Shown: one piece after another, positions 17,830-45,275 of the stretch
Layout of the letters: the number at the start of each line of letters is the position of its first letter
Numbering within the stretch: the stretch's first letter is position 1
Source: a phage
Reading direction: 5' to 3' (one strand)
NCBI GenBank assembly: GCA_030873995.1
Contig: GCA_030873995.1_4701.1
Length of the DNA: 45,609 bases
Made by a program: the position numbers and the translations under genes
Notes under the pieces: generated by a model
The model's input: only the letters and a program-made list of their open reading frames with translations
The model's database searches: none
Told to the model about the DNA's origin: nothing

Positions 17830-17838
17830 GGAGGTGGG

Positions 17839-17991
17839 ATGATTAACTCCGAACTGGTAGATAATGGTGTGAAGCTTGCGCCACCTGCACTCGTATCAGG
17901 TGGGTACTTCCTCGGTATCAGTTGGGATAACTGGCTCGTAATTATGACCCTTATTTACACAGTAATGCAAAATGGGTTGGTTTATTTATGA
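17839..17991 (+). CDS. holin, T7 gp17.5-like
   Basis: 50 aa, one TM segment; GGYFLGISWDNWLVIMTLIYTVMQNG resembles the T7 gp17.5 core as recalled; AAGGAGGTGGG RBS. Confidence 0.6.
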   Translation: MINSELVDNGVKLAPPALVSGGYFLGISWDNWLVIMTLIYTVMQNGLVYL

Positions 17992-18027
17992 GAAGGTCCA
18001 GACTATAAAGAAGAGGAGAAAAGCTAA

Positions 18028-18459
18028 ATGTACTCAGAAGTTGAAAGAGCAGGATACATCATAAGAGAAGATGGTGTTATCTTGAGCAAGAAGGGACAAC
18101 CGATGGTTGGTGCTATTCGTGAAAGAGGATACCGCACAGTAACATTAAGGATAGATAATAAATCCAAGACTTATAAAGTACATAGGTTGACTGCATGGAA
18201 GCATGTGCCGAACCCTCATAACTATAAGGTTGTTAACCATAAAGACCGCAACCCATCTAATTGCCATAAAGATAACCTAGAGTGGTGCACTCAACAGGAA
18301 AACACTATACATGCACACTATGGTTGTCTTGACATACAAGATAAAATAGATGAAGCCAAAGCATTAAGAAGCCAAGGCTGGTCTTATCCTAAAATCGGTA
18401 AATACTTTGGGTTAGACCATAAGACTGTTTGGTATTGGATTAATGGGAGAAGAACTTGA
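18028..18459 (+). CDS. HNH homing endonuclease
   Basis: 143 aa; motif HKDRNPSNCHKDNLEWCTQQEN; inserted between holin and terminase small subunit. Confidence 0.75.
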   Translation: MYSEVERAGYIIREDGVILSKKGQPMVGAIRERGYRTVTLRIDNKSKTYKVHRLTAWKHVPNPHNYKVVNHKDRNPSNCHKDNLEWCTQQENTIHAHYGCLDIQDKIDEAKALRSQGWSYPKIGKYFGLDHKTVWYWINGRRT

Positions 18460-18755
18460 GCGTACATAACAAACATGCAGCTACAGAAGACGAGGTTGGC
18501 ATTCTGCATGGTGCTATTACCAAAATCTTCAATAAGAAAGCACAGGCAATACTGGACACTATAGAAGAAGACCCTGATGCAGCACTACATTTAGTCTCTG
18601 GTAAAGACATTGGTGCTATGTGTAAGTGGGTACTGGATAACGGCATCACTGCTACACCTGCTGCACAGCAGGAAGAGTCCAAGTTATCTAAGCGCCTCAA
18701 GGCTATCCGAGAGGCATCCAGTGGTAAGATAATTCAATTCACTAAGGAGGATTGA
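18456..18755 (+). CDS. terminase small subunit (gp18-like), start codon uncertain (TTG)
   Basis: 99 aa ORF immediately upstream of and overlapping the terminase large subunit. Confidence 0.5.
   Translation: MSVHNKHAATEDEVGILHGAITKIFNKKAQAILDTIEEDPDAALHLVSGKDIGAMCKWVLDNGITATPAAQQEESKLSKRLKAIREASSGKIIQFTKED
18547..18569 (+). promoter_or_regulatory. phage-RNAP promoter inside the terminase small subunit gene
   Basis: CAATACTGGACACTATAGAAGAAG; matches consensus from -14 to +6, diverges at -17 to -15. Confidence 0.55.
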
Positions 18756-24398: not shown

Positions 24399-26582
24399 AT
24401 GCTTCAAAGATTAGGGGCAATGTTTGTTCGGTACAAAAATAAAGTAGGTAATGCTATCGAGCGTACACTACAAAGTAAATTACAGGATGTAGTAAGTGTA
24501 AAGGATTATGGCGCTATTGGTGATGGAGTATATCGTTCACTTGGTGCTAAATTTACCACGTTAAGTATGGCACAAGTAGTATACCCGCATGCGGAAAGTT
24601 TAACTCAATCGCAAGATTGGGCGGCTATTCAGGCTGCACTTAATTCTCACTCAAAAGTGTACATTCCAGCAGGTAAGTACATGCTATCTGATACCATTGA
24701 GATGCGCGGCGGTCAAACTCTGCAAGGTGACGGTATTGATTCTTGGGTTGCAGGTTATGCTGGGTTTGTAAAAGATAATCAAGGCACTCACCTCATAATG
24801 GTGGGAGATGGAAATAAGAAGTATACATTAGATCATGTATCTAACTTCGATGTAGAAGGTGGTGTCATAGACAACCCAGCGAAGAGTGATGCTTATACTG
24901 CCACTGCACCTTCCCCTAATTACTCATTTACTAACTTCACTAACGCTAACGCCTCTGGTGCACAACGTGCTACATTGAAACCTTTCAGCGTAGCATTACG
25001 TTGCACAGGTCACGGTGGTGTTTATCTTCGTGACTTCCGTATTGTGCCTAATCACAGAGGGCAAGAAGGTTATAAGGATGAGTTGTCAACTGCATTAGGG
25101 GACGCATGGGATGTAGGTATTTGGCTGGAGAATACATCTGACTCAGTGTTATCTTCTGTGCAAGCAGTTGGTTACTGGCGTATTGCAGGTGTTATGAAGA
25201 CTTGTATTCCACAAGAGGGTTCCTTTGTTGGTGGAGAGCGTGATAGGATATACAATTGCACATTACAAGGTTATCGTGGTTTCTTAGCACGTTCGCATGA
25301 TACTTACCAAGTAGAAGAAGTATCAGGTAACACTGTATCGATTAAGTGGTCTGCATCTCACACTTTCGAACCTTCTGGTAAAGTTCGTATCCAAGGGAAA
25401 GACCGTAGTTATACTAGCCTGTCTGTATCTGGTGACAAATTAGTCTTCAATGGTATTGACGATGTATCAGGTATTAATACCAATAGCTATGTGAGAGTTT
25501 CAGGGTCTTCATTCGGAATGTCTGCTACTCAACTAAATAACACATACATCGCTGCATTAAACCATCATGCTCGCTTGCCAGCAACCTCTAATCTTTTAGA
25601 TAATAGGTTTTCTACTTCGGCAGCTTGCTATGAAGTTGCAGGTGAACCAATTCGTGCCATAAAATTATCTAACTGTACTGTCATTACTTGGGATGACATC
25701 TTAGGTATGACTGGTGGTATTCGGGATTTCCAGACGACAGATACTTACTTCGAGTCTCAGCCTTTCCGTACTTCTGTGCAAGGCTTGGCAAGCACCACAC
25801 AACCTGCTGGTTCTCGCATGATTGCACTTCGTGGACGTCAAGGTTCTAAAACTACAGGATATCAAGCTATCGGTTGTACTTATGGGCCAGGTGTAGACTT
25901 AAGTCCTCGTTATGAAAGCGATGTATCTCGTTACACAACTTCAGGTGGTATGTTCAATCCAAGAGAAGATTTGAACACAACTAAGCAGTTACCAATGAGG
26001 CAAGACGCTACTGAGCTATCTTCTACTTCTGACTTATTCCTTACACATGCTGTAGGGCGGAAGGCCTATGTTGGCGCTACCTCTGGTGATGCAACGCTTC
26101 AATCTAGAACTGGATCATTGAATATCCAATCAGGACTTCGTGTACGGATTGGTGGCACTGATGGTAGTGGTTGGTATATTGCTGACAGTGCTAAGTTGAC
26201 ACCTACTGCTGACAATGCAAGGGCTTGTGGACAGCCTAATGGACGATGGACTGTTGTCTATGCTGTTAATGGTACAATCCAGACTTCTGATGGTAGATTC
26301 AAGGAAATCCTTGAGATTGAACAGGCAGAACTTGATGCTGGTCTTGAATTATCAGCAAACCTAATTAAGTATCGGTGGAATGGGGAAGATAAAATTCACT
26401 TTGGTTGCATAGCACAAGAAGTGATGTTAATACTGGAGAAACATGGCCTAGACCCATTACAATATGATATGGTTCAGTATGATGAGGAGGCAGACATCTT
26501 TGGGGTAAACTATGCTGAACTCAACAGCTTCTGTATTGCAGCATTATCGAGGAAGTTAAATGCCATTAATAAAATCAGTTAA
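24399..26582 (+). CDS. tailspike 2 with C-terminal intramolecular chaperone (peptidase S74-like) domain
   Basis: 727 aa; VKDYGAIGDG signature; C-terminal SDGRFKE...HFGCIAQE; AAGGAGG RBS. Confidence 0.75.
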   Translation: MLQRLGAMFVRYKNKVGNAIERTLQSKLQDVVSVKDYGAIGDGVYRSLGAKFTTLSMAQVVYPHAESLTQSQDWAAIQAALNSHSKVYIPAGKYMLSDTIEMRGGQTLQGDGIDSWVAGYAGFVKDNQGTHLIMVGDGNKKYTLDHVSNFDVEGGVIDNPAKSDAYTATAPSPNYSFTNFTNANASGAQRATLKPFSVALRCTGHGGVYLRDFRIVPNHRGQEGYKDELSTALGDAWDVGIWLENTSDSVLSSVQAVGYWRIAGVMKTCIPQEGSFVGGERDRIYNCTLQGYRGFLARSHDTYQVEEVSGNTVSIKWSASHTFEPSGKVRIQGKDRSYTSLSVSGDKLVFNGIDDVSGINTNSYVRVSGSSFGMSATQLNNTYIAALNHHARLPATSNLLDNRFSTSAACYEVAGEPIRAIKLSNCTVITWDDILGMTGGIRDFQTTDTYFESQPFRTSVQGLASTTQPAGSRMIALRGRQGSKTTGYQAIGCTYGPGVDLSPRYESDVSRYTTSGGMFNPREDLNTTKQLPMRQDATELSSTSDLFLTHAVGRKAYVGATSGDATLQSRTGSLNIQSGLRVRIGGTDGSGWYIADSAKLTPTADNARACGQPNGRWTVVYAVNGTIQTSDGRFKEILEIEQAELDAGLELSANLIKYRWNGEDKIHFGCIAQEVMLILEKHGLDPLQYDMVQYDEEADIFGVNYAELNSFCIAALSRKLNAINKIS

Positions 26583-26709: not shown

Positions 26710-26843
26710 GCAGGTTAATATCTTAGTGTACACAAGGGTAGACTTATGATAGCTCACAGCACACCTCTGAGTGCCGCTCTGGATTCTATGAATTGTTCCC
26801 TGACTATCTAGGTCTGCTCTTAGTGTATTCCAAAGGAGGTGAC

Positions 26844-26999
26844 ATGATTTGGATTCATACGTATGGTGTAGGGCCATTCAAGCAGAATGTACTCAGGAAG
26901 ATTCATGAGTCCGAGGAATCAGCCTTAGCCAGCCAGAAGGTACTTGGTGGAACTATCCAGTGCTACATGAAGAAGCCACAAGGCTTTGATTTAGGGTAA
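26844..26999 (+). CDS. hypothetical protein (51 aa) at the right end of the gene map
   Basis: ATG 26844 with AAAGGAGGTGA RBS; track ORF 26793 trimmed. Confidence 0.5.
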   Translation: MIWIHTYGVGPFKQNVLRKIHESEESALASQKVLGGTIQCYMKKPQGFDLG

Positions 27000-27686
27000 C
27001 CAAAGGTGGTCACAAAGTAACCAAAGTCAAAATTTTGATGTAGGCGTGTGTGAGGTGTCTCGCCCTCGCCCTCGCCGGGTTGTCCCCATAGGGTGGCCTG
27101 AGGGAATCCGTCTTCGACGGGCAGGGCTGATGTACTCCTTGCCTAGTACAAGGGAGGCGGAGTGAACGCCTGGGACGGCCTAGGGAATGGCTTAGTGGTG
27201 GACAAGGTGATTACCTTAGTGAAGCCTCTTAGTGCATTCCTTAGGCCATTCAGGGCGTTTATGAGGTATTGACAGGGTGGATGGGTGTGGGCTATCTGTT
27301 CGTTTCGCTACGCTTCACTCACTGCTCCTCACTTCGTTCGTCGCTGCGGTAGCCTGATGTGTACCTTAGGTTATTACTTGATGGATAGCTTAGGTTAGCC
27401 TTAGTGGATTACCTTAGTTAAAGCCTTAGTGCTTCACTTAGTATCAGCTTAGTAGTGTACCTTAGTCAGACTTAGTGTCTTCTCTTAGTGATTGCATAGC
27501 TAAAGCTATAAGATGCAAATAGGTCGCGGTCGGTAGACCGCTAAAGAAAGAGAATGGTAATAAGATGCAGTAGGAGGAACACCAGAAACCTAGCCAACCT
27601 AAGCTATCCTAGCTCTATATCTATTGCTTTTCCTTAGTCTAACACGTTAGACAACCTATCTTATTCTTAGTGATGGTAACTTAGTG

Positions 27687-33433: not shown

Positions 33434-33562
33434 ATGCGTAACTTTGAGAAGATGACCCGTAAAGCTAACCGTTTTGACATGGAAGAAGGGCAGAAGAAAG
33501 GCAAGAAGCTGAATAAACCTGTCCGTGACCGTGCATCTAAACGCGCTGCGTGGGAGTTCTAA
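33434..33562 (+). CDS. T7 gp1.1-like small basic protein
   Basis: 42 aa MRNFEKMTRKANR... matches the T7 gp1.1 N-terminus as recalled; same position after RNAP and twin promoters. Confidence 0.6.
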   Translation: MRNFEKMTRKANRFDMEEGQKKGKKLNKPVRDRASKRAAWEF

Positions 33563-33565
33563 GTT

Positions 33566-35554
33566 ATGGCTATTATTCAGAATGTACCGTGTCCTGCTTG
33601 CCAAAAGAACGGACATGATATTACTGGCAATCATTTAATGATCTTTGACGACGGGGCAGGGTACTGTAACCGTGGTCACTTCCATGATAACGGTAAACCT
33701 TATTACCACAAGCCGGAAGGTGGCATCGAGATAACCGAGTTACCTATTACTGGCAATATCAAATATACACCTTCTCAATTCAAAGAAATGGAGAAGGAAG
33801 GGAAGATAAGCGACCCTAAGCTACGCGCCATCGCACTTGGTGGTATGCGTATGAAAGACCGTTGGGAGGTTATGAATGAGCAAGAAAGGGCAGACCAAGA
33901 AGCAGAGTGGAAACTTGATGTTGAATGGTTCCTCACGCTTAAGCGTAAGAACCTTGTATCCCGTCACATTCGAGGTGACATCGCAGCAATGTACGATGTG
34001 CGCGTTGGACACGATGAAGAGGGAAGAGTCAACCGTCACTATTATCCACGATATGAAAAGGGTGTGTTTGTTGGAGCAAAATGCCGGACGTTGCCGAAGG
34101 ATTTTAAGTTCGGACACCTAGGTAAACTCTTTGGTATGCAAGACCTTTTCGGTATGAACACTTTGTCTCACGTGTTAGACAAGGGGAGACGAAAGGATTG
34201 CTTGCTTATTGTAGGCGGTGAACTTGATGCACTAGCAGCGCAGCAGATGCTCCTTGATTCTGCCAAAGGTACTAAGTGGGAAGGTCAGCCATACCATGTA
34301 TGGTCTGTCAATAAAGGTGAGTCTTGCCTTGAAGAGATAGTGCAAAACCGTGAGCACATAGCCCAATTCAAGAAGATTATATGGGGCTTTGATGGCGACG
34401 AGGTGGGGCAGAAGCAGAACCAACAAGCTGCTCGCCTGTTTCCTGGCAAATCCTACATCCTCGAATATCCATCTGGTTGCAAAGATGCTAACAAGGCATT
34501 GATGGCTGGCAAGGCTAAAGAGTTTGTAGATGCATGGTTTAATGCCAAGTCATCTGATGAAGTCTTTGGTAGCCAGATTAAATCTATCGCATCTCAAAGG
34601 GATAAGCTCAAGGCTGCACGTCCAGAGCAAGGACTATCATGGCCTTGGCCTAAGCTGAACAAGGTAACGCTAGGTATTCGTAAGAACCAACTTATCATTG
34701 TAGGCGCAGGCTCTGGTGTAGGTAAGACTGAGTTCCTTCGTGAAGTAGTTAAGCACCTCATTGAAGAACACGGTGAATCTGTAGGCATCATTTCTACAGA
34801 AGACCCGATGGTCAAGGTGTCCCGTGCTTTTATCGGCAAGTGGATTGATAAGCGTATTGAGTTACCGCCAACCAACGACCCGAAAGAAGATGGATACCGT
34901 GAGGTGTTCGACTACACCGAGGAAGAGGCTAACGCCGCCATTGATTATGTAGCTGATACAGGTAAGCTGTTTGTAGCTGACCTAGAGGGTGACTATTCGA
35001 TGGAAAAGGTAGAGCAAACTTGCCTAGAGTTTGAGGCTATGGGCATTTCTAATATCATCATTGATAACTTAACGGGGATTAAATTAGATGAGCGTGCTTT
35101 TGGTGGGAAGGTTGGTGCACTTGATGAATGCGTCAAGCGGATTGGTACTATCAAAGACCGACACCCGGTTACTATATTCCTTGTATCACACCTTACACGT
35201 CCTCCGGCAAACCGTACCCAACACGAAGAAGGTGGCGAGGTTATCCTTTCTGACTTCCGAGGTTCAGGCGCTATCGGATTCTGGGCATCTTACGCCTTGG
35301 GGATTGAGCGTAATACAAGAGCTGAAACGCTTGATGAACGGACTACCACGTACATCTCATGTGTCAAAGACCGCGACCAAGGTATCTACACTGGAACCAA
35401 GGTCATGCTTAAGGGTGACATTCAAACCGGACGTTTAATGGAACCACAAGCCCGTACTAAGTCATTTGATACAGGTGAAGCAAGGCAACAAGAAGTGCCG
35501 GATTTACCGGACACTATAGAAGAGACAACTTTTGACGATGAACAGGAGTTTTAA
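33566..35554 (+). CDS. DNA primase/helicase (gp4-like)
   Basis: 662 aa; N-terminal Cys4 zinc ribbon, Walker A GAGSGVGKT; acidic C-terminus ending DDEQEF. Confidence 0.9.
   Translation: MAIIQNVPCPACQKNGHDITGNHLMIFDDGAGYCNRGHFHDNGKPYYHKPEGGIEITELPITGNIKYTPSQFKEMEKEGKISDPKLRAIALGGMRMKDRWEVMNEQERADQEAEWKLDVEWFLTLKRKNLVSRHIRGDIAAMYDVRVGHDEEGRVNRHYYPRYEKGVFVGAKCRTLPKDFKFGHLGKLFGMQDLFGMNTLSHVLDKGRRKDCLLIVGGELDALAAQQMLLDSAKGTKWEGQPYHVWSVNKGESCLEEIVQNREHIAQFKKIIWGFDGDEVGQKQNQQAARLFPGKSYILEYPSGCKDANKALMAGKAKEFVDAWFNAKSSDEVFGSQIKSIASQRDKLKAARPEQGLSWPWPKLNKVTLGIRKNQLIIVGAGSGVGKTEFLREVVKHLIEEHGESVGIISTEDPMVKVSRAFIGKWIDKRIELPPTNDPKEDGYREVFDYTEEEANAAIDYVADTGKLFVADLEGDYSMEKVEQTCLEFEAMGISNIIIDNLTGIKLDERAFGGKVGALDECVKRIGTIKDRHPVTIFLVSHLTRPPANRTQHEEGGEVILSDFRGSGAIGFWASYALGIERNTRAETLDERTTTYISCVKDRDQGIYTGTKVMLKGDIQTGRLMEPQARTKSFDTGEARQQEVPDLPDTIEETTFDDEQEF
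35502..35524 (+). promoter_or_regulatory. phage-RNAP promoter embedded in the primase/helicase C-terminal coding tail
   Basis: ATTTACCGGACACTATAGAAGAG, encodes DLPDTIEE. Confidence 0.75.
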
Positions 35555-36923: not shown

Positions 36924-37031
36924 ATGCCACGTGATTATGATTCTGATTGGGACTACTATGACTCAATGAATCCAAAACCAGAACGTTCAGATGATTACTA
37001 CGAAACAGAGGCAATGTATGAAAACTATTAA
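36924..37031 (+). CDS. small acidic Tyr/Asp-rich peptide (35 aa)
   Basis: GGAGGTG RBS; MPRDYDSDWDYYDS... Confidence 0.35.
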   Translation: MPRDYDSDWDYYDSMNPKPERSDDYYETEAMYENY

Positions 37032-37236
37032 AGTCAGTAAGGTTTGCTCTTGCGGTAAAGGTTATCGCAGTCGTATTGATGGTAAGTGTGGACATTGTAG
37101 GTCTAAGAAAGAGGCTGCTTTGTTTGACAAGTACCACAATGAATTAGCCTATAACTACCCACATCTAACACCTAATTCTTTATTAGGGCTTGGTTATAGG
37201 GCTAAATACTTTGGAGCAATCTATGAAATCAATTGA
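37018..37236 (+). CDS. small zinc-ribbon-like protein (72 aa)
   Basis: CSCG...CGHC motif; AGAGG RBS; overlaps the DNAP start. Confidence 0.45.
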   Translation: MKTIKVSKVCSCGKGYRSRIDGKCGHCRSKKEAALFDKYHNELAYNYPHLTPNSLLGLGYRAKYFGAIYEIN

Positions 37237-42222: not shown

Positions 42223-42513
42223 ATGCCGACTATTGAAGAACGTTTCCTGATTCACGTGAGCTTCTCATCCATACATCTTGGTTATCTTATCACTATTCTC
42301 TTAGGTGAAGAGATTTATCTGCATAACCACTTAATACCAGAGTATGTATGTCACCGAGATAAGATACACCCTACTAATTGGGCGAAAGAGTGGCTGCGTG
42401 AACATGTGCTGAAGGAGTGGCCTACATGCGACCAAACTTCGACTTCGGAGCTACAGTATCGGAAGACAATAACCTGTTGCTGTGGCCGACTGAAGGTAAT
42501 CGAATCGCTTTAA
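42223..42513 (+). CDS. hypothetical protein (96 aa), 3' end overlaps the exonuclease start
   Basis: GGAGAA RBS; preceded by a hairpin terminator candidate. Confidence 0.4.
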   Translation: MPTIEERFLIHVSFSSIHLGYLITILLGEEIYLHNHLIPEYVCHRDKIHPTNWAKEWLREHVLKEWPTCDQTSTSELQYRKTITCCCGRLKVIESL

Positions 42514-43451
42514 TAGATGCTGATATGTTACCCTATATTGTAGGATATACTATCAGTGACATGACTTATGTACGAGCCACAACTCGTGTTAAGTCAGGAC
42601 AAGTCCCATCAATCAAGGATACACCTGAATGTAAGCAAGCATGTGACCGTGTGAACTCCTTGCTTAACTCTTGGGTGTATGCAGCAGAGTGCGATGCAGC
42701 TAAGTTATTCATGACGAAATCAGAAGCTAACTTCCGTGTTCGCCTAGCATTCACCAAGCCTTACAAGGGTCAACGTAAGACCGAGAAGCCTCCATTCTTC
42801 TATGAATTGCGAGAGCATCTCTTAGAGGTTCATGGTGCAATCTTGGCTGATGGTGAGGAAGCAGATGACCTAATGAGCATCGCACAATGGGACAGCCATC
42901 GCCGCTTCCAGCAAGATACAGGTAACGAGTTCCCTATCGGTAGTCCAGAGCATAAAGCATTCTCTGATACTTGCATCGTTTCCTTAGATAAGGATTTGAT
43001 GATTGTTCCCGGTTGGCATCTACAGCCGGGAGGTGAGAAGAAATGGGTAGAGCCTATGGGTTGGCTTGAGCTACGCCGCAAGGCTAATGGTCAAGTGAAA
43101 GACCTTAAAGGTGCTGGCCTCATGTTCCACTATGCACAGATGATTATTGGTGATGACATAGATAATTATGCTGGCATACCGGGACGTGGTGCTAAATATG
43201 CCTATGCTCTTCTCAAAGACTGTAAGACAGAGAAAGAATTGTACATGGCAGTGCTTGGTGCATACAAGGCTAAGTTCGGTCATGGACAAGTTAAGATTAA
43301 GAATTACCGAGGTGGTTATCGTATCGGCAAAGCCTTTGACCTGATGCTTGAATGTGGTCGCCTAGCTCACATGGCAAGATTCAAAGGGGACATATGGCGG
43401 GCCGATAAGAACCCAATCTTGTGGGGAGATGACGATGGATGGATGCATTGA
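42426..43451 (+). CDS. 5'-3' exonuclease (gp6-like, FEN family)
   Basis: Motifs RIALIDADML, GEEADDLMSIA, SLDKDLMIVPG, GDDIDNYAGIPG; GAAGGAG RBS before ATG 42426. Confidence 0.8.
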   Translation: MRPNFDFGATVSEDNNLLLWPTEGNRIALIDADMLPYIVGYTISDMTYVRATTRVKSGQVPSIKDTPECKQACDRVNSLLNSWVYAAECDAAKLFMTKSEANFRVRLAFTKPYKGQRKTEKPPFFYELREHLLEVHGAILADGEEADDLMSIAQWDSHRRFQQDTGNEFPIGSPEHKAFSDTCIVSLDKDLMIVPGWHLQPGGEKKWVEPMGWLELRRKANGQVKDLKGAGLMFHYAQMIIGDDIDNYAGIPGRGAKYAYALLKDCKTEKELYMAVLGAYKAKFGHGQVKIKNYRGGYRIGKAFDLMLECGRLAHMARFKGDIWRADKNPILWGDDDGWMH

Positions 43452-43872
43452 CCATGGGTGTAAAGGTTATGGCATGGGCTACGCTACTGCCTTCTATAAA
43501 GGTAGATGTGGTAAGAAGAAATATACCACTAAGCACAGGCTAGTTTACTGTAAGCACCATAACATTCACCCTGAAGATTTGCCTAAAGATATTGTTATTA
43601 GGCACAAATGTGATAATGCACGTTGTATCAATCCTTTACATTTAGAGTCTGGTACACATCAAGATAACATGAAGGACATGGCTGTCCGTGGCAGAGCCTA
43701 CAAAGGAGGGATGCCAGGAGAAAAGAATGGCAGATGTGTGCTTTCTGATTTACAAGTAGCAGAATTACGCGCCTTACGTGCTAAAGGGTTTACTTGTAAA
43801 GCTCTAGCTGAACGGTATGGCATAGGTACTACTCAAGTATCTAGACTAGCAAGAGGAGAACAACGTGCGTAA
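43435..43872 (+). CDS. HNH endonuclease with C-terminal helix-turn-helix
   Basis: HKCDNARCINPLHLESGTHQDN motif; GGGGAG RBS before ATG 43435. Confidence 0.7.
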   Translation: MDGCIDHGCKGYGMGYATAFYKGRCGKKKYTTKHRLVYCKHHNIHPEDLPKDIVIRHKCDNARCINPLHLESGTHQDNMKDMAVRGRAYKGGMPGEKNGRCVLSDLQVAELRALRAKGFTCKALAERYGIGTTQVSRLARGEQRA

Positions 43873-44275
43873 GATGAAGCAATCTGAACTTGGTGAAGTT
43901 CGTGATATACTGTGTGAAAGACAAGGTTGGCGTTGCCCTATTTGTGGAGGTCATTTAAAACTTATCTCTAAAGCAAATAGGGTCGTTGACCATTCACACG
44001 ATAATGTAGGTGCAGTCCGTGGTGTATTATGCCGTGGGTGCAATGGAGGTATCGGCAAGATAGAAGCGTATGCACAGTCGTATTGTAAGGCTGGCAATAA
44101 TACGCTTGAGGTTATCAAAGTTCTACGTAATCTTGCGGACTACTTAGAACTCCATCGCACACCGCAGACAGAGTGGATTTATTACAAACATCAAACGGAG
44201 GCAGAGAAACGAGAGGCTAAGAATCGTAAGGCTCGCCTTGCTTATGCAAGAAAGAAGGAGGCTAAGAGTGGCTAA
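43865..44275 (+). CDS. recombination endonuclease VII-like (Holliday junction resolvase)
   Basis: CPICGG...VVDHSHDN...RGVLCRGCNGG signature. Confidence 0.75.
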   Translation: MRKMKQSELGEVRDILCERQGWRCPICGGHLKLISKANRVVDHSHDNVGAVRGVLCRGCNGGIGKIEAYAQSYCKAGNNTLEVIKVLRNLADYLELHRTPQTEWIYYKHQTEAEKREAKNRKARLAYARKKEAKSG

Positions 44276-45275
44276 ACTTCGTAGCCTTTATAAAGACTCC
44301 GAGGTGCTTGATGCAATCGAGCAAGCTACCGACGAGAAAGGTAATGTTAACTATAATGAGATGGCGAAGATCCTATCTAGCCACCCTGTGGGTAAGAAGA
44401 TCACCCGTCAACTTGCTCGGTATTGGCATGGTCAATTTAAGAAGACCAAGAAGAATGGCGATTACTACCAGACTCTTCTGCAAGAGGATAAGCGTATCAA
44501 AGAAGAGCGTAAGCTCAGGACTCCTGACCGCTACGAGGATTTGGCTATTGTACCATTGCCTGACTCGCCTCATCGAAGTGTACTGGTAATCCCTGATACT
44601 CATGCACCTTATGAGCACCCAGATACCCTAGAGTTCCTTGCAGCCGTGGCGGCACGTTACCGTCCAGACACAGTGGTACACCTAGGAGATGAGGCAGACA
44701 AACATGCCCTGTCATTCCACGATTCGGACCCAAATCTGGATAGTGCTGGCATGGAGCTAGAGAAGGCTCGTGTCTTCATGCACAAGTTGCACAAGATGTT
44801 CCCTGTGATGCGCCTGTGTCATTCTAATCACGGCTCTATGCACTTCCGTAAGGCAAGCGCCAAGGGTATTCCAGTGCAATATCTTCGCACCTACCGTGAA
44901 GTCTTTTTCCCAAATGGAGGTGGCGACCAGTGGGATTGGCAGCATACACATGTTCTTGAGTTGCCGAATGGTGAACAAGTGGCATTCAAGCATCAACCTG
45001 CTGGCTCTGTCCTAGCAGATGCAGCGCATGAGCGTATGAACCTTGTGTGTGGTCACTTGCACGGTAAGATGTCTGTGGAGTACGCACGTAATACACATGA
45101 ACAGTATTGGGCTGTGCAAGGTGGCTGCTTAATTGATGAGTCATCCCGTGCATTTGCCTATGGGCGTGAGTCTAAATACAAGCCAGCATTAGGTTGTGTG
45201 GTTATTCTGGAGGGTGTACCTCATATTGTCCCGATGCAAACCAATAGCGACAACCGTTGGATTGGCAAGATTTAG
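44268..45275 (+). CDS. calcineurin-like metallophosphoesterase with about 100-aa N-terminal extension
   Basis: Motifs IPDTH, GDEAD, SNHG, GHLHG; AAGGAGG RBS 7 nt before GTG 44268. Confidence 0.65.
   Translation: MAKLRSLYKDSEVLDAIEQATDEKGNVNYNEMAKILSSHPVGKKITRQLARYWHGQFKKTKKNGDYYQTLLQEDKRIKEERKLRTPDRYEDLAIVPLPDSPHRSVLVIPDTHAPYEHPDTLEFLAAVAARYRPDTVVHLGDEADKHALSFHDSDPNLDSAGMELEKARVFMHKLHKMFPVMRLCHSNHGSMHFRKASAKGIPVQYLRTYREVFFPNGGGDQWDWQHTHVLELPNGEQVAFKHQPAGSVLADAAHERMNLVCGHLHGKMSVEYARNTHEQYWAVQGGCLIDESSRAFAYGRESKYKPALGCVVILEGVPHIVPMQTNSDNRWIGKI

Follow-up and report, generated by a model that had tools for sequence, protein, structure and literature searches.

Two predicted free-standing HNH homing endonuclease genes and their mosaic surroundings in a Vectrevirus genome

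Why would a phage carry one small HNH gene between its lysis and packaging genes and a second one beside its endonuclease VII gene, and are these genes mobile elements or working parts of the modules in which they sit? The window (the whole stretch of DNA analyzed, 45.6 kb) in which we addressed this question is a complete, circularly permuted Vectrevirus genome (Autographiviridae, Molineuxvirinae; SP6/K1-5/K1E group) and is collinear with phage LL11 in a whole-genome comparison. A sequence-only reading of this DNA had placed two HNH ORFs at 18028..18459 and 43435..43872, and had taken them for mobile homing endonuclease insertions that mark likely recombination hot spots. Both ORFs are present at these positions, both score above the cut-off for HNH_3, and they are the only HNH ORFs in the window; we refer to them as HNH1 and HNH2.

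Gene layout and protein features

HNH1 (18028..18459, + strand, 143 aa) lies amid late genes. According to Pfam, a T7-type holin gene is found upstream of it, and the genes of the small terminase (TerS) and then of a T7-type large terminase (TerL) are found downstream, so that the position next to the terminase proposed for HNH1 holds for its 3′ side, where TerS lies, but not for its 5′ side, where the neighbor is the holin. HNH1 begins with ATG, preceded by the Shine-Dalgarno sequence GAGGAG at 18013-18018, and it ends in the sequence TTGA (18456-18459), where its stop TGA (18457-18459) and the TTG with which TerS starts at 18456 overlap. The holin gene (17839..17991, + strand; T7-type class II, Pfam Phage_holin_2_2, 1.4e-16) codes for 50 aa here. 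One extra A in the run at 17969-17972 (AAAA) ends this ORF early, at 17991, and for that reason the start of HNH1 in the window does not overlap the holin stop. Four other aligned carriers of HNH1 (EC120, ULINTec4, K1E KY435490, and ACG-C91) have AAA at this run, with AAAA in the window alone, and in the same four the holin is annotated as 225 nt, reaching 37 nt into HNH1. A holin frameshift in the window genome is probable.

HNH2 (43435..43872, + strand, 145 aa) lies amid DNA-metabolism genes. Its neighbors by Pfam are a 5′-3′ exonuclease, endonuclease VII, and a metallophosphoesterase, in agreement with the exonuclease and endonuclease VII that had been read beside it. The exonuclease gene (42417..43451, + strand) was identified as an ORF with a weak match to Pfam 5_3_exonuc, and the gene is annotated as an exonuclease in LL11, NTNC80A, VR702, and others; the endonuclease VII gene (43865..44275, + strand) matches Pfam Endonuclease_7 at 2.6e-13. 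The HNH2 ORF opens at an ATG at 43429, which would give 147 aa, but the ATG at 43435 appears the likelier start, as it has GGGGAG 6 nt upstream and the orthologs begin with MSGCIDHG. From this start, HNH2 overlaps the last codons and the stop of the exonuclease gene (TGA, 43449-43451) by 17 nt, while downstream 8 nt are shared between the end of HNH2 (stop TAA, 43870-43872) and the beginning of endonuclease VII (start GTG at 43865); the insert provides both a new exonuclease stop TGA and the endonuclease VII start GTG. The overlap with the stops and starts of adjacent genes, which had been claimed for both HNH genes, is thus found on both sides of HNH2 and on the 3′ side of HNH1, and is lacking on the 5′ side of HNH1.

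Both proteins match Pfam HNH_3 above the gathering cut-off of 24.8 bits (HNH1 with 32.7 bits, 5.8e-8; HNH2 with 27.5 bits, 2.4e-6) as well as phrog_59, ‘HNH endonuclease’ (6e-35 and 1e-26, respectively); a search of NCBIfam returned no match for either. Their mutual identity is only 24%. HNH1 aligns with I-HmuI (PDB 1U3E) with E=4e-8 over residues 11-104, which comprise the N-terminal DNA-binding part and the catalytic core. Across five Vectrevirus HNH paralog families, residues V51 H52, N70 H71 D73, N83 L84 E85 W86, and N92 of HNH1 are invariant, and the motifs VH(R/Q)L, NH.D, NLEW, and N92 are kept. HNH2 is Cys/His-rich: C4, H7, H34, R56 H57 C59 D60 N61, C64 I65 N66 P67 H69, H75, N78, and C101 are invariant in seven homologs down to 48% identity, a range over which the core RH.CDN.RCINP.HL..GTH..N is also kept. 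Judged from these alignments, the HNH catalytic motif appears intact in both proteins (H71, N83, and N92 in HNH1; H57, N66, H69, H75, and N78 in HNH2). A search of the PDB with the HNH2 sequence gave only a weak resemblance to the His-Cys box of I-PpoI (E=0.28), which we did not use as evidence.

Beyond the catalytic core, both proteins have a C-terminal helix-turn-helix, seen as matches to HTH_23 (1.7e-4, in HNH1) and HTH_31 (1.2e-3) that are both below the Pfam cut-offs. In single-sequence AlphaFold models, the C-terminal three-helix region reached block-mean pLDDT values of 71-90 in HNH2 and 60-88 in HNH1, within models whose mean pLDDT was 46.7 and 48.5 and whose first ~100 residues, including the catalytic core, were mostly below 50. 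Along with the alignment of the HNH1 N-terminus to I-HmuI, these matches and modeled helices make a moderate, not strong, case for additional DNA-binding modules. Both genes are under purifying selection: codon analysis gave a pN of 0.10 and a pS of 0.78 for HNH1 against its ortholog in K1E KY435490, while the dN/dS of HNH2 was 0.096 against PDP21P3 and 0.09 against PST_H2. We consider it highly likely that HNH1 and HNH2 code for homing endonucleases of the HNH_3 (I-HmuI-like) class and are free-standing, with a nuclease activity that is predicted from their sequences.

Nine SP6-type promoters were found in the window, against 0.01 expected by chance, and all nine are far from HNH1 and HNH2. 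A scan of the HNH1 region detected no phage promoter, sigma-70-like promoter, or terminator belonging to HNH1. Since neither gene has a phage promoter of its own, both are presumably expressed within the surrounding operons.

Distribution and empty sites among relatives

We scored the presence and absence of the two genes in an annotated phage collection, using tblastn for orthologs. As a DNA query, either HNH locus retrieved ~112-113 phage records, mainly of Escherichia Vectrevirus, at 90-99% identity. HNH1 has orthologs at the same site in 6 of ~113 related records, with 76-99% amino acid identity (EC120, 6948, ULINTec4, K1E KY435490, and ACG-C91, the last in two records), and the best match beyond those six is 40% identical. 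HNH2 has orthologs at the same site in 7 of ~112 records, with 71-95% amino acid identity: PDP21P3 (two records), NTNC80A, the Klebsiella phages KpnP_VR702 and pKP-M186-2.1, which belong to the Molineuxvirinae, and the Salmonella phages PST_H2 and SE29, which belong to Zindervirus. No database record contains orthologs of both genes. The orthologs that are annotated carry the names ‘HNH endonuclease’ or ‘putative HNH endonuclease’; in EC120, ULINTec4, and 6948 the HNH1 ORF is unannotated, and we flag it here for those records.

Site 1 is empty in most relatives, among them LL11, K1-5, K1E AM084415, AAPEc6, NTNC80A, CrRp3, and the Sem phages; the region is then ~439 nt shorter, and holin and TerS overlap by 17 nt. 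Site 2 is empty in LL11, K1-5, K1E, and most others. We read the empty junctions directly in LL11, K1-5, AAPEc6, NTNC80A, and cp4, and at the precise empty sites of most related Vectrevirus records the neighboring genes abut or overlap. Both genes are therefore sporadically present, with precise empty sites. Relatives that were all filled, with no empty sites, would have spoken against mobility, and this is not what we found, as most Vectrevirus records are empty. With empty sites so common and orthologs confined to six and seven records, the proposal that the two genes are mobile insertions is upheld, as far as mobility can be judged from comparing genomes.

The fate of the copies and the sites they occupy point the same way. 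The HNH1 copy of ACG-C91 is damaged by a 1-nt deletion, and the HNH2 copy of SE29 by an in-frame TAG, for which it is annotated as split ORFs; damaged copies in some lineages are as expected in a homing cycle. Zindervirus phages and the Molineuxvirinae of Klebsiella have HNH2 homologs of 73-76% identity at the site 2 junction, and others with 48-51% identity lie at the same exonuclease-endonuclease junction in the Lelliottia phage phD2B (Tuodvirus) and the Aeromonas phage PS, where they overlap both neighboring genes. The family keeps its position between exonuclease and endonuclease VII across five or more lineages (Vectrevirus, Zindervirus, Tuodvirus, Klebsiella Molineuxvirinae, and an Aeromonas phage).

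In the genus, HNH genes are inserted at no fewer than four additional junctions. These lie ahead of the primase/helicase and DNA polymerase genes, between TerS and TerL, and behind the tailspike genes. All four, which are occupied by unrelated HNH genes in LL11 and EC120, are empty in the window, and a search of the window there found neither HNH genes nor remnants. The small ORFs that the window has there belong to phrog_12821 and phrog_3955, which are unrelated proteins whose function is not known.

Linked flanks and mosaic patches

Not only the HNH genes but also their flanks differ between filled and empty sites. Over its initial 93 nt, the holin gene of the window is 97.8% identical to LL11, whereas its 3′ end, from 17932 on, is only 60% identical to the empty-site allele of that phage. 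This alternative holin 3′ allele (17932..18027, + strand) forms the left flank, putatively co-converted, and is linked to HNH1: all five filled alleles that we aligned share it, starting at 17932, and among 50,697 phage records it is present in exactly the six that bear HNH1. The HNH1-linked holin has 74 aa and a different charged tail, compared with 64 aa in empty-site phages and the frameshifted 50 aa in the window. On the right, the putatively co-converted flank is the 5′ part of TerS (18456..18617, + strand), in which a TTG start replaces the GTG of empty-site alleles. Its first 40 nt have five differences from LL11, the start codon and four synonymous changes, which amounts to 87.5% identity against 95.4% for the remainder of the gene. 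The empty allele reads ...GGAGGGAGAAGC and then GTGAGCGTACACAAT..., where the holin end is followed by TerS, starting with GTG. When the site is filled, the 3′ end of HNH1 rebuilds a Shine-Dalgarno sequence and a start for TerS (...GGGAGAAGAACTTGAGCGTACATAAC...), and a similar GAGGAG...ATG layout serves HNH1 itself.

A three-way comparison of the window with LL11 and EC120 delimited an EC120-like patch around HNH1 in an LL11-like backbone, at 17931..18617 (+ strand) by informative sites, with outer limits at 17837 and 18725. Between 17100 and 17836, the window agrees with LL11 and not with EC120 at 67 of 69 informative sites; between 17931 and 18491 it agrees with EC120 at all of them; between 18585 and 18708 the sites are mixed; and from 18725 the window agrees with LL11 again. 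In terms of identity, the flanks of site 1 are 99.5-100% (left) and 98.5-100% (right) identical to LL11, while from the holin 3′ end through HNH1 to nucleotide 100 of TerS the identity to EC120 is 99-100%. The patch reads as the footprint of a gene-conversion event of ~0.65-0.8 kb centered on HNH1. As for its direction, LL11 could equally have lost HNH1 by gaining an empty-type patch from a K1-5-like phage.

HNH2 is likewise surrounded by a patch of distinct ancestry, of ~1 kb (43432..44475, + strand), which covers HNH2 and endonuclease VII and extends ~200 nt into the phosphoesterase gene. Compared with the empty-site LL11, Sem1, and EC120, this segment is undetectable or 86% identical, and its sole close relative is PDP21P3, at 89-100%. 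The flanks of the patch are 91-100% identical to empty-site relatives; farther right, the identity to the empty-site phages Sem1 and EC120 reaches 98.5-100%, and the resemblance to PDP21P3 declines. Because no near-identical empty backbone was found, we regard the site 2 patch as older and less sharply bounded. Within it, endonuclease VII begins with 288 nt (43865-44152) of a divergent, HNH2-linked allele, with 55% nucleotide and 46% amino acid identity to LL11, against 84% nucleotide identity over the last 123 nt. The HNH2 carriers make up seven of the best eight tblastn matches to this allele. Klebsiella phage cp4 has a precise empty site 2 in a donor-type background (GGCTGGTTACAT followed by GCGTAAGATGAAG) and has the filled-type endonuclease VII allele without HNH2, so this allele would be a hitch-hiking one of the lineage and not one made by the HNH gene. 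Endonuclease VII is the junction-resolving enzyme of the phage, and HNH2 is always accompanied by the ~46%-identical version of its first two thirds.

The alternative holin 3′ end, the alternative endonuclease VII 5′ part, and the mosaic patches give a linked, divergent flank at both loci, which is consistent with co-conversion. At each gene, the nearest relative of the patch is not the nearest relative of the flanks, in keeping with the recombination hot spots that the sequence-only reading had expected.

Breakpoints of recombination that coincide so tightly with HNH genes at two independent loci are difficult to reconcile with the explanation that these ORFs are inactive relics or domesticated DNA-binding proteins, and that the whole pattern arose by ordinary homologous recombination without homing. 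It is true that the patches alone prove recombination only, that decayed copies exist in relatives, and that the direction of conversion at site 1 is readable either way. Nevertheless, both genes retain intact, invariant catalytic motifs and show strong purifying selection across a synonymous divergence that is saturated, and the HNH2 family holds the same junction across several genera. Moreover, the strict linkage to divergent flanks is the signature expected of target-site immunity and co-conversion. We judge an origin without homing to be improbable.

If the two genes are homing endonuclease genes, as we favor, each would probably be transcribed from an upstream SP6-type promoter and translated via its own Shine-Dalgarno sequence. 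In a mixed infection with a relative lacking the gene, the enzyme would nick or cut the empty allele, either at the junction or close to it, with a predicted target area at the holin 3′ end and TerS start for HNH1, and at the exonuclease 3′ end and endonuclease VII 5′ part for HNH2. Recombination from the HNH-carrying genome would then repair the break, and the repair would also copy ~95 nt of the holin 3′ end and ~130-260 nt of TerS in the case of HNH1, or, in the case of HNH2, endonuclease VII together with the beginning of the phosphoesterase gene. The carrier genome would be immune, its target having been changed by the insertion and by the divergent flank linked to it. In this scheme we infer that the enzymes are active, which exact sites they target, whether they make a nick or a double-strand break, and in which direction conversion runs.

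One further idea, speculative and in our opinion rather unlikely, is that homing cassettes do more than carry a selfish nuclease and may swap functional alleles of the neighboring genes. Were it true, homing of HNH1 could spread a holin allele with a different lysis timing, and the linkage of HNH2 to endonuclease VII could point to a partnership in function, or to a marker-exclusion weapon against the recombination gene of a competitor. In any case, the replacement of holin and endonuclease VII alleles is tied to nuclease genes in these phages, and the K1-5/K1E group is a genus of therapeutic phages. The two well-defined natural pairs of filled and empty alleles could be used directly to measure homing, the length of co-conversion tracts, and marker exclusion.

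Packaging nucleases, introns, and comparison with known systems

The position of HNH1 immediately upstream of the terminase genes is also that of the HNH gene of the HK97 gp74 type (Kala et al., 2014, as cited in PMC8861465). We therefore weighed whether HNH1 is a packaging accessory nuclease of this type, needed by the terminase for the cutting of concatemers, in which case its position would be functional. Phages with a packaging HNH have a gene order similar to HNH-TerS-TerL, in the account of Kala et al. (2014) given in PMC8861465, and a conserved HNH of Skunavirus is the subject of PMC12967558. The C-terminal region of HNH1 has, in addition, a weak match to Pfam Terminase_5 (E=0.0017, below the cut-off), which is confined to the helix-turn-helix region. 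Nevertheless, HNH1 is found in just 6 of ~113 related records, and LL11 does without it while being 98.5-100% identical over TerL; because relatives with near-identical terminase genes lack HNH1, it cannot be required for packaging. The gp74-type proteins are described as conserved, essential partners of Terminase_1 enzymes in long-tailed phages (cited through PMC8861465), whereas HNH1 is dispensable in its genus, belongs to HNH_3, and lies beside a T7-type terminase, TerL matching only the T7-type RNaseH-like domain PF22530 and not the Terminase_1 family to which, on the same account of Kala et al. (2014) in PMC8861465, the partners of packaging HNH proteins belong. The architecture of HNH1 is also I-HmuI-like, with HNH_3 and DNA-binding modules, and PF01844 gave no match to it at E<=0.01. 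On distribution, terminase type, and domain family, we rejected a packaging HNH of the HK97 gp74 type as very improbable.

An origin of the HNH ORFs as passengers or remnants of group I introns interrupting the neighboring genes has a negligible probability and was rejected: the TerL gene of K1E and phD2B is reportedly split by an intron bearing a homing endonuclease gene (PMC4246154), and both I-HmuI and I-PfoP3I are intron-encoded (PMC3428280), but Rfam found no group I intron and no other RNA family in the window, the neighboring genes of empty-site relatives are separate, complete, and abutting or overlapping, and the HNH ORFs of the window are intergenic, overlapping stops and starts, with no split gene.

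We return to the homing interpretation and its closest parallels. The VHRL, (D/N)HKD, NL(R/E)W, and terminal N motifs of I-HmuI from the Bacillus phage SPO1 line up with HNH1, and both proteins have a C-terminal helical DNA-binding region. They differ in length (143 aa in HNH1 against 174 aa in I-HmuI) and in the residue before the catalytic His, which is Asn in HNH1, as in all Vectrevirus HNH paralogs, and Asp in I-HmuI. This Asp is reportedly metal-binding in the 1U3E structure. I-HmuI and I-PfoP3I lie inside group I introns, whereas HNH1 is free-standing, with no intron detected. Enzymes of the I-HmuI type, including I-PfoP3I of the T7-like cyanophage Pf-WMP3, are nickases (PMC3428280).

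Our literature search found general and analogous cases, and in the literature covered we did not find these two insertion sites described. Among the analogous cases is the Hafnia phage Ca (Autographiviridae, Kayfunavirus), in which a 397-bp HNH gene beside TerL overlaps both neighbors and is present or absent within a single stock, in genomes that are otherwise identical (PMC8861465). Like HNH1, it is small and belongs to the lysis/packaging module of a T7-like phage; it differs in its junction, which lies between a lysis protein and TerL instead of between holin and TerS, as well as in genus and sequence family. Another is mobE of T4, a free-standing HNH gene that mobilizes itself and its flanking DNA (PMC2790892). 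The homing cycle proposed above agrees with what has been established for mobE. The free-standing genes of T-even phages resemble HNH1 and HNH2 in lying between essential genes, in being sporadic, and in having flanks that co-move by gene conversion (PMC2790892). However, mobE differs from HNH1 and HNH2 in phage family, insertion sites, and sequence, and its mobility is experimental, whereas HNH1 and HNH2 are known from sequence. More generally, homing endonuclease genes are found beside essential genes, cluster near terminase and replisome genes, and mark the boundaries of genetic exchange (PMC10448857), a picture that the proposed cycle also fits. HNH1 and HNH2 are further members of this well-known class, and homing genes near terminase and replication genes are to be expected in T7/SP6-like phages; the most useful details they offer are that the conversion patch is sharp and that alternative alleles of holin and endonuclease VII are strictly linked to them.

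Occupancy of the HNH junctions

Among the genomes, occupancy of the six HNH junctions, namely the holin-TerS (site 1) and exonuclease-endonuclease VII (site 2) intervals and four others in the genus, varies independently. Relatives carry unrelated HNH genes at these four further junctions, all of which are empty in the window (~33559-33569, 37021-37233, 18752-18755 and 26727-27023). Particularly, LL11, an empty-site relative, has HNH genes 5′ of the primase/helicase gene, 5′ of the DNA polymerase gene and 3′ of the tailspike genes, while the junction between the small and large terminase genes is occupied in EC120 and AAPEc6. The exact site of one LL11 HNH gene is taken in the window by a 72-aa Cys-rich ORF (CxC...CxxC; 37018-37236; phrog_12821, function unknown), which overlaps the DNA polymerase start and in which no nuclease domain was detected. 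In Klebsiella phage cp4 (locus L014) the HNH2 junction is empty. Judging from their position, two cp4 ORFs may be further nuclease insertions: one of at least 159 aa (1-480, running off the locus end) directly upstream of the exonuclease gene, and one of 195 aa (1769-2356) between the endonuclease VII and phosphoesterase genes.

Missed and decaying copies

Intact HNH1 orthologues with 98-99% amino acid identity are present in EC120 (locus L002, 1428-1856), ULINTec4 (locus L009, 501-929) and 6948 (OL362272.1, 44118-44543), but the GenBank annotation of all three omits them and leaves the holin-TerS interval as a gap. Other copies are nuclease genes in decay. In HNH2 of Salmonella phage SE29 (locus L006, 1495-1819) an in-frame TAG falls within the catalytic region, and the annotation splits the gene into two short ORFs. 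HNH1 of ACG-C91 (locus L011, 507-893) has lost its helix-turn-helix region through a 1-nt deletion. Two GenBank records named K1E also differ at site 1, which is empty in AM084415.1 and holds an HNH1 orthologue in KY435490.1. As these records are, moreover, unequal in overall identity to the window, the name K1E spans distinct genomes.

Holin and tailspike differences

Alignment with the four other HNH1 carriers revealed one additional A, absent from all four, in the run at 17969-17972 of the window's holin gene (17839-17991). Because of this extra base the predicted holin is only 50 aa long, compared with 74 aa in the aligned carriers and 64 aa in empty-site phages. The insertion may reflect an error in sequencing the homopolymer, or else a true mutation of the lysis gene. 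Finally, the second tailspike region of the window (24464-26549) showed no detectable similarity to LL11, and its flanks are 94% identical to that phage. This difference is a swap of the host-range (capsule depolymerase) cassette, typical of K1-5-like phages.
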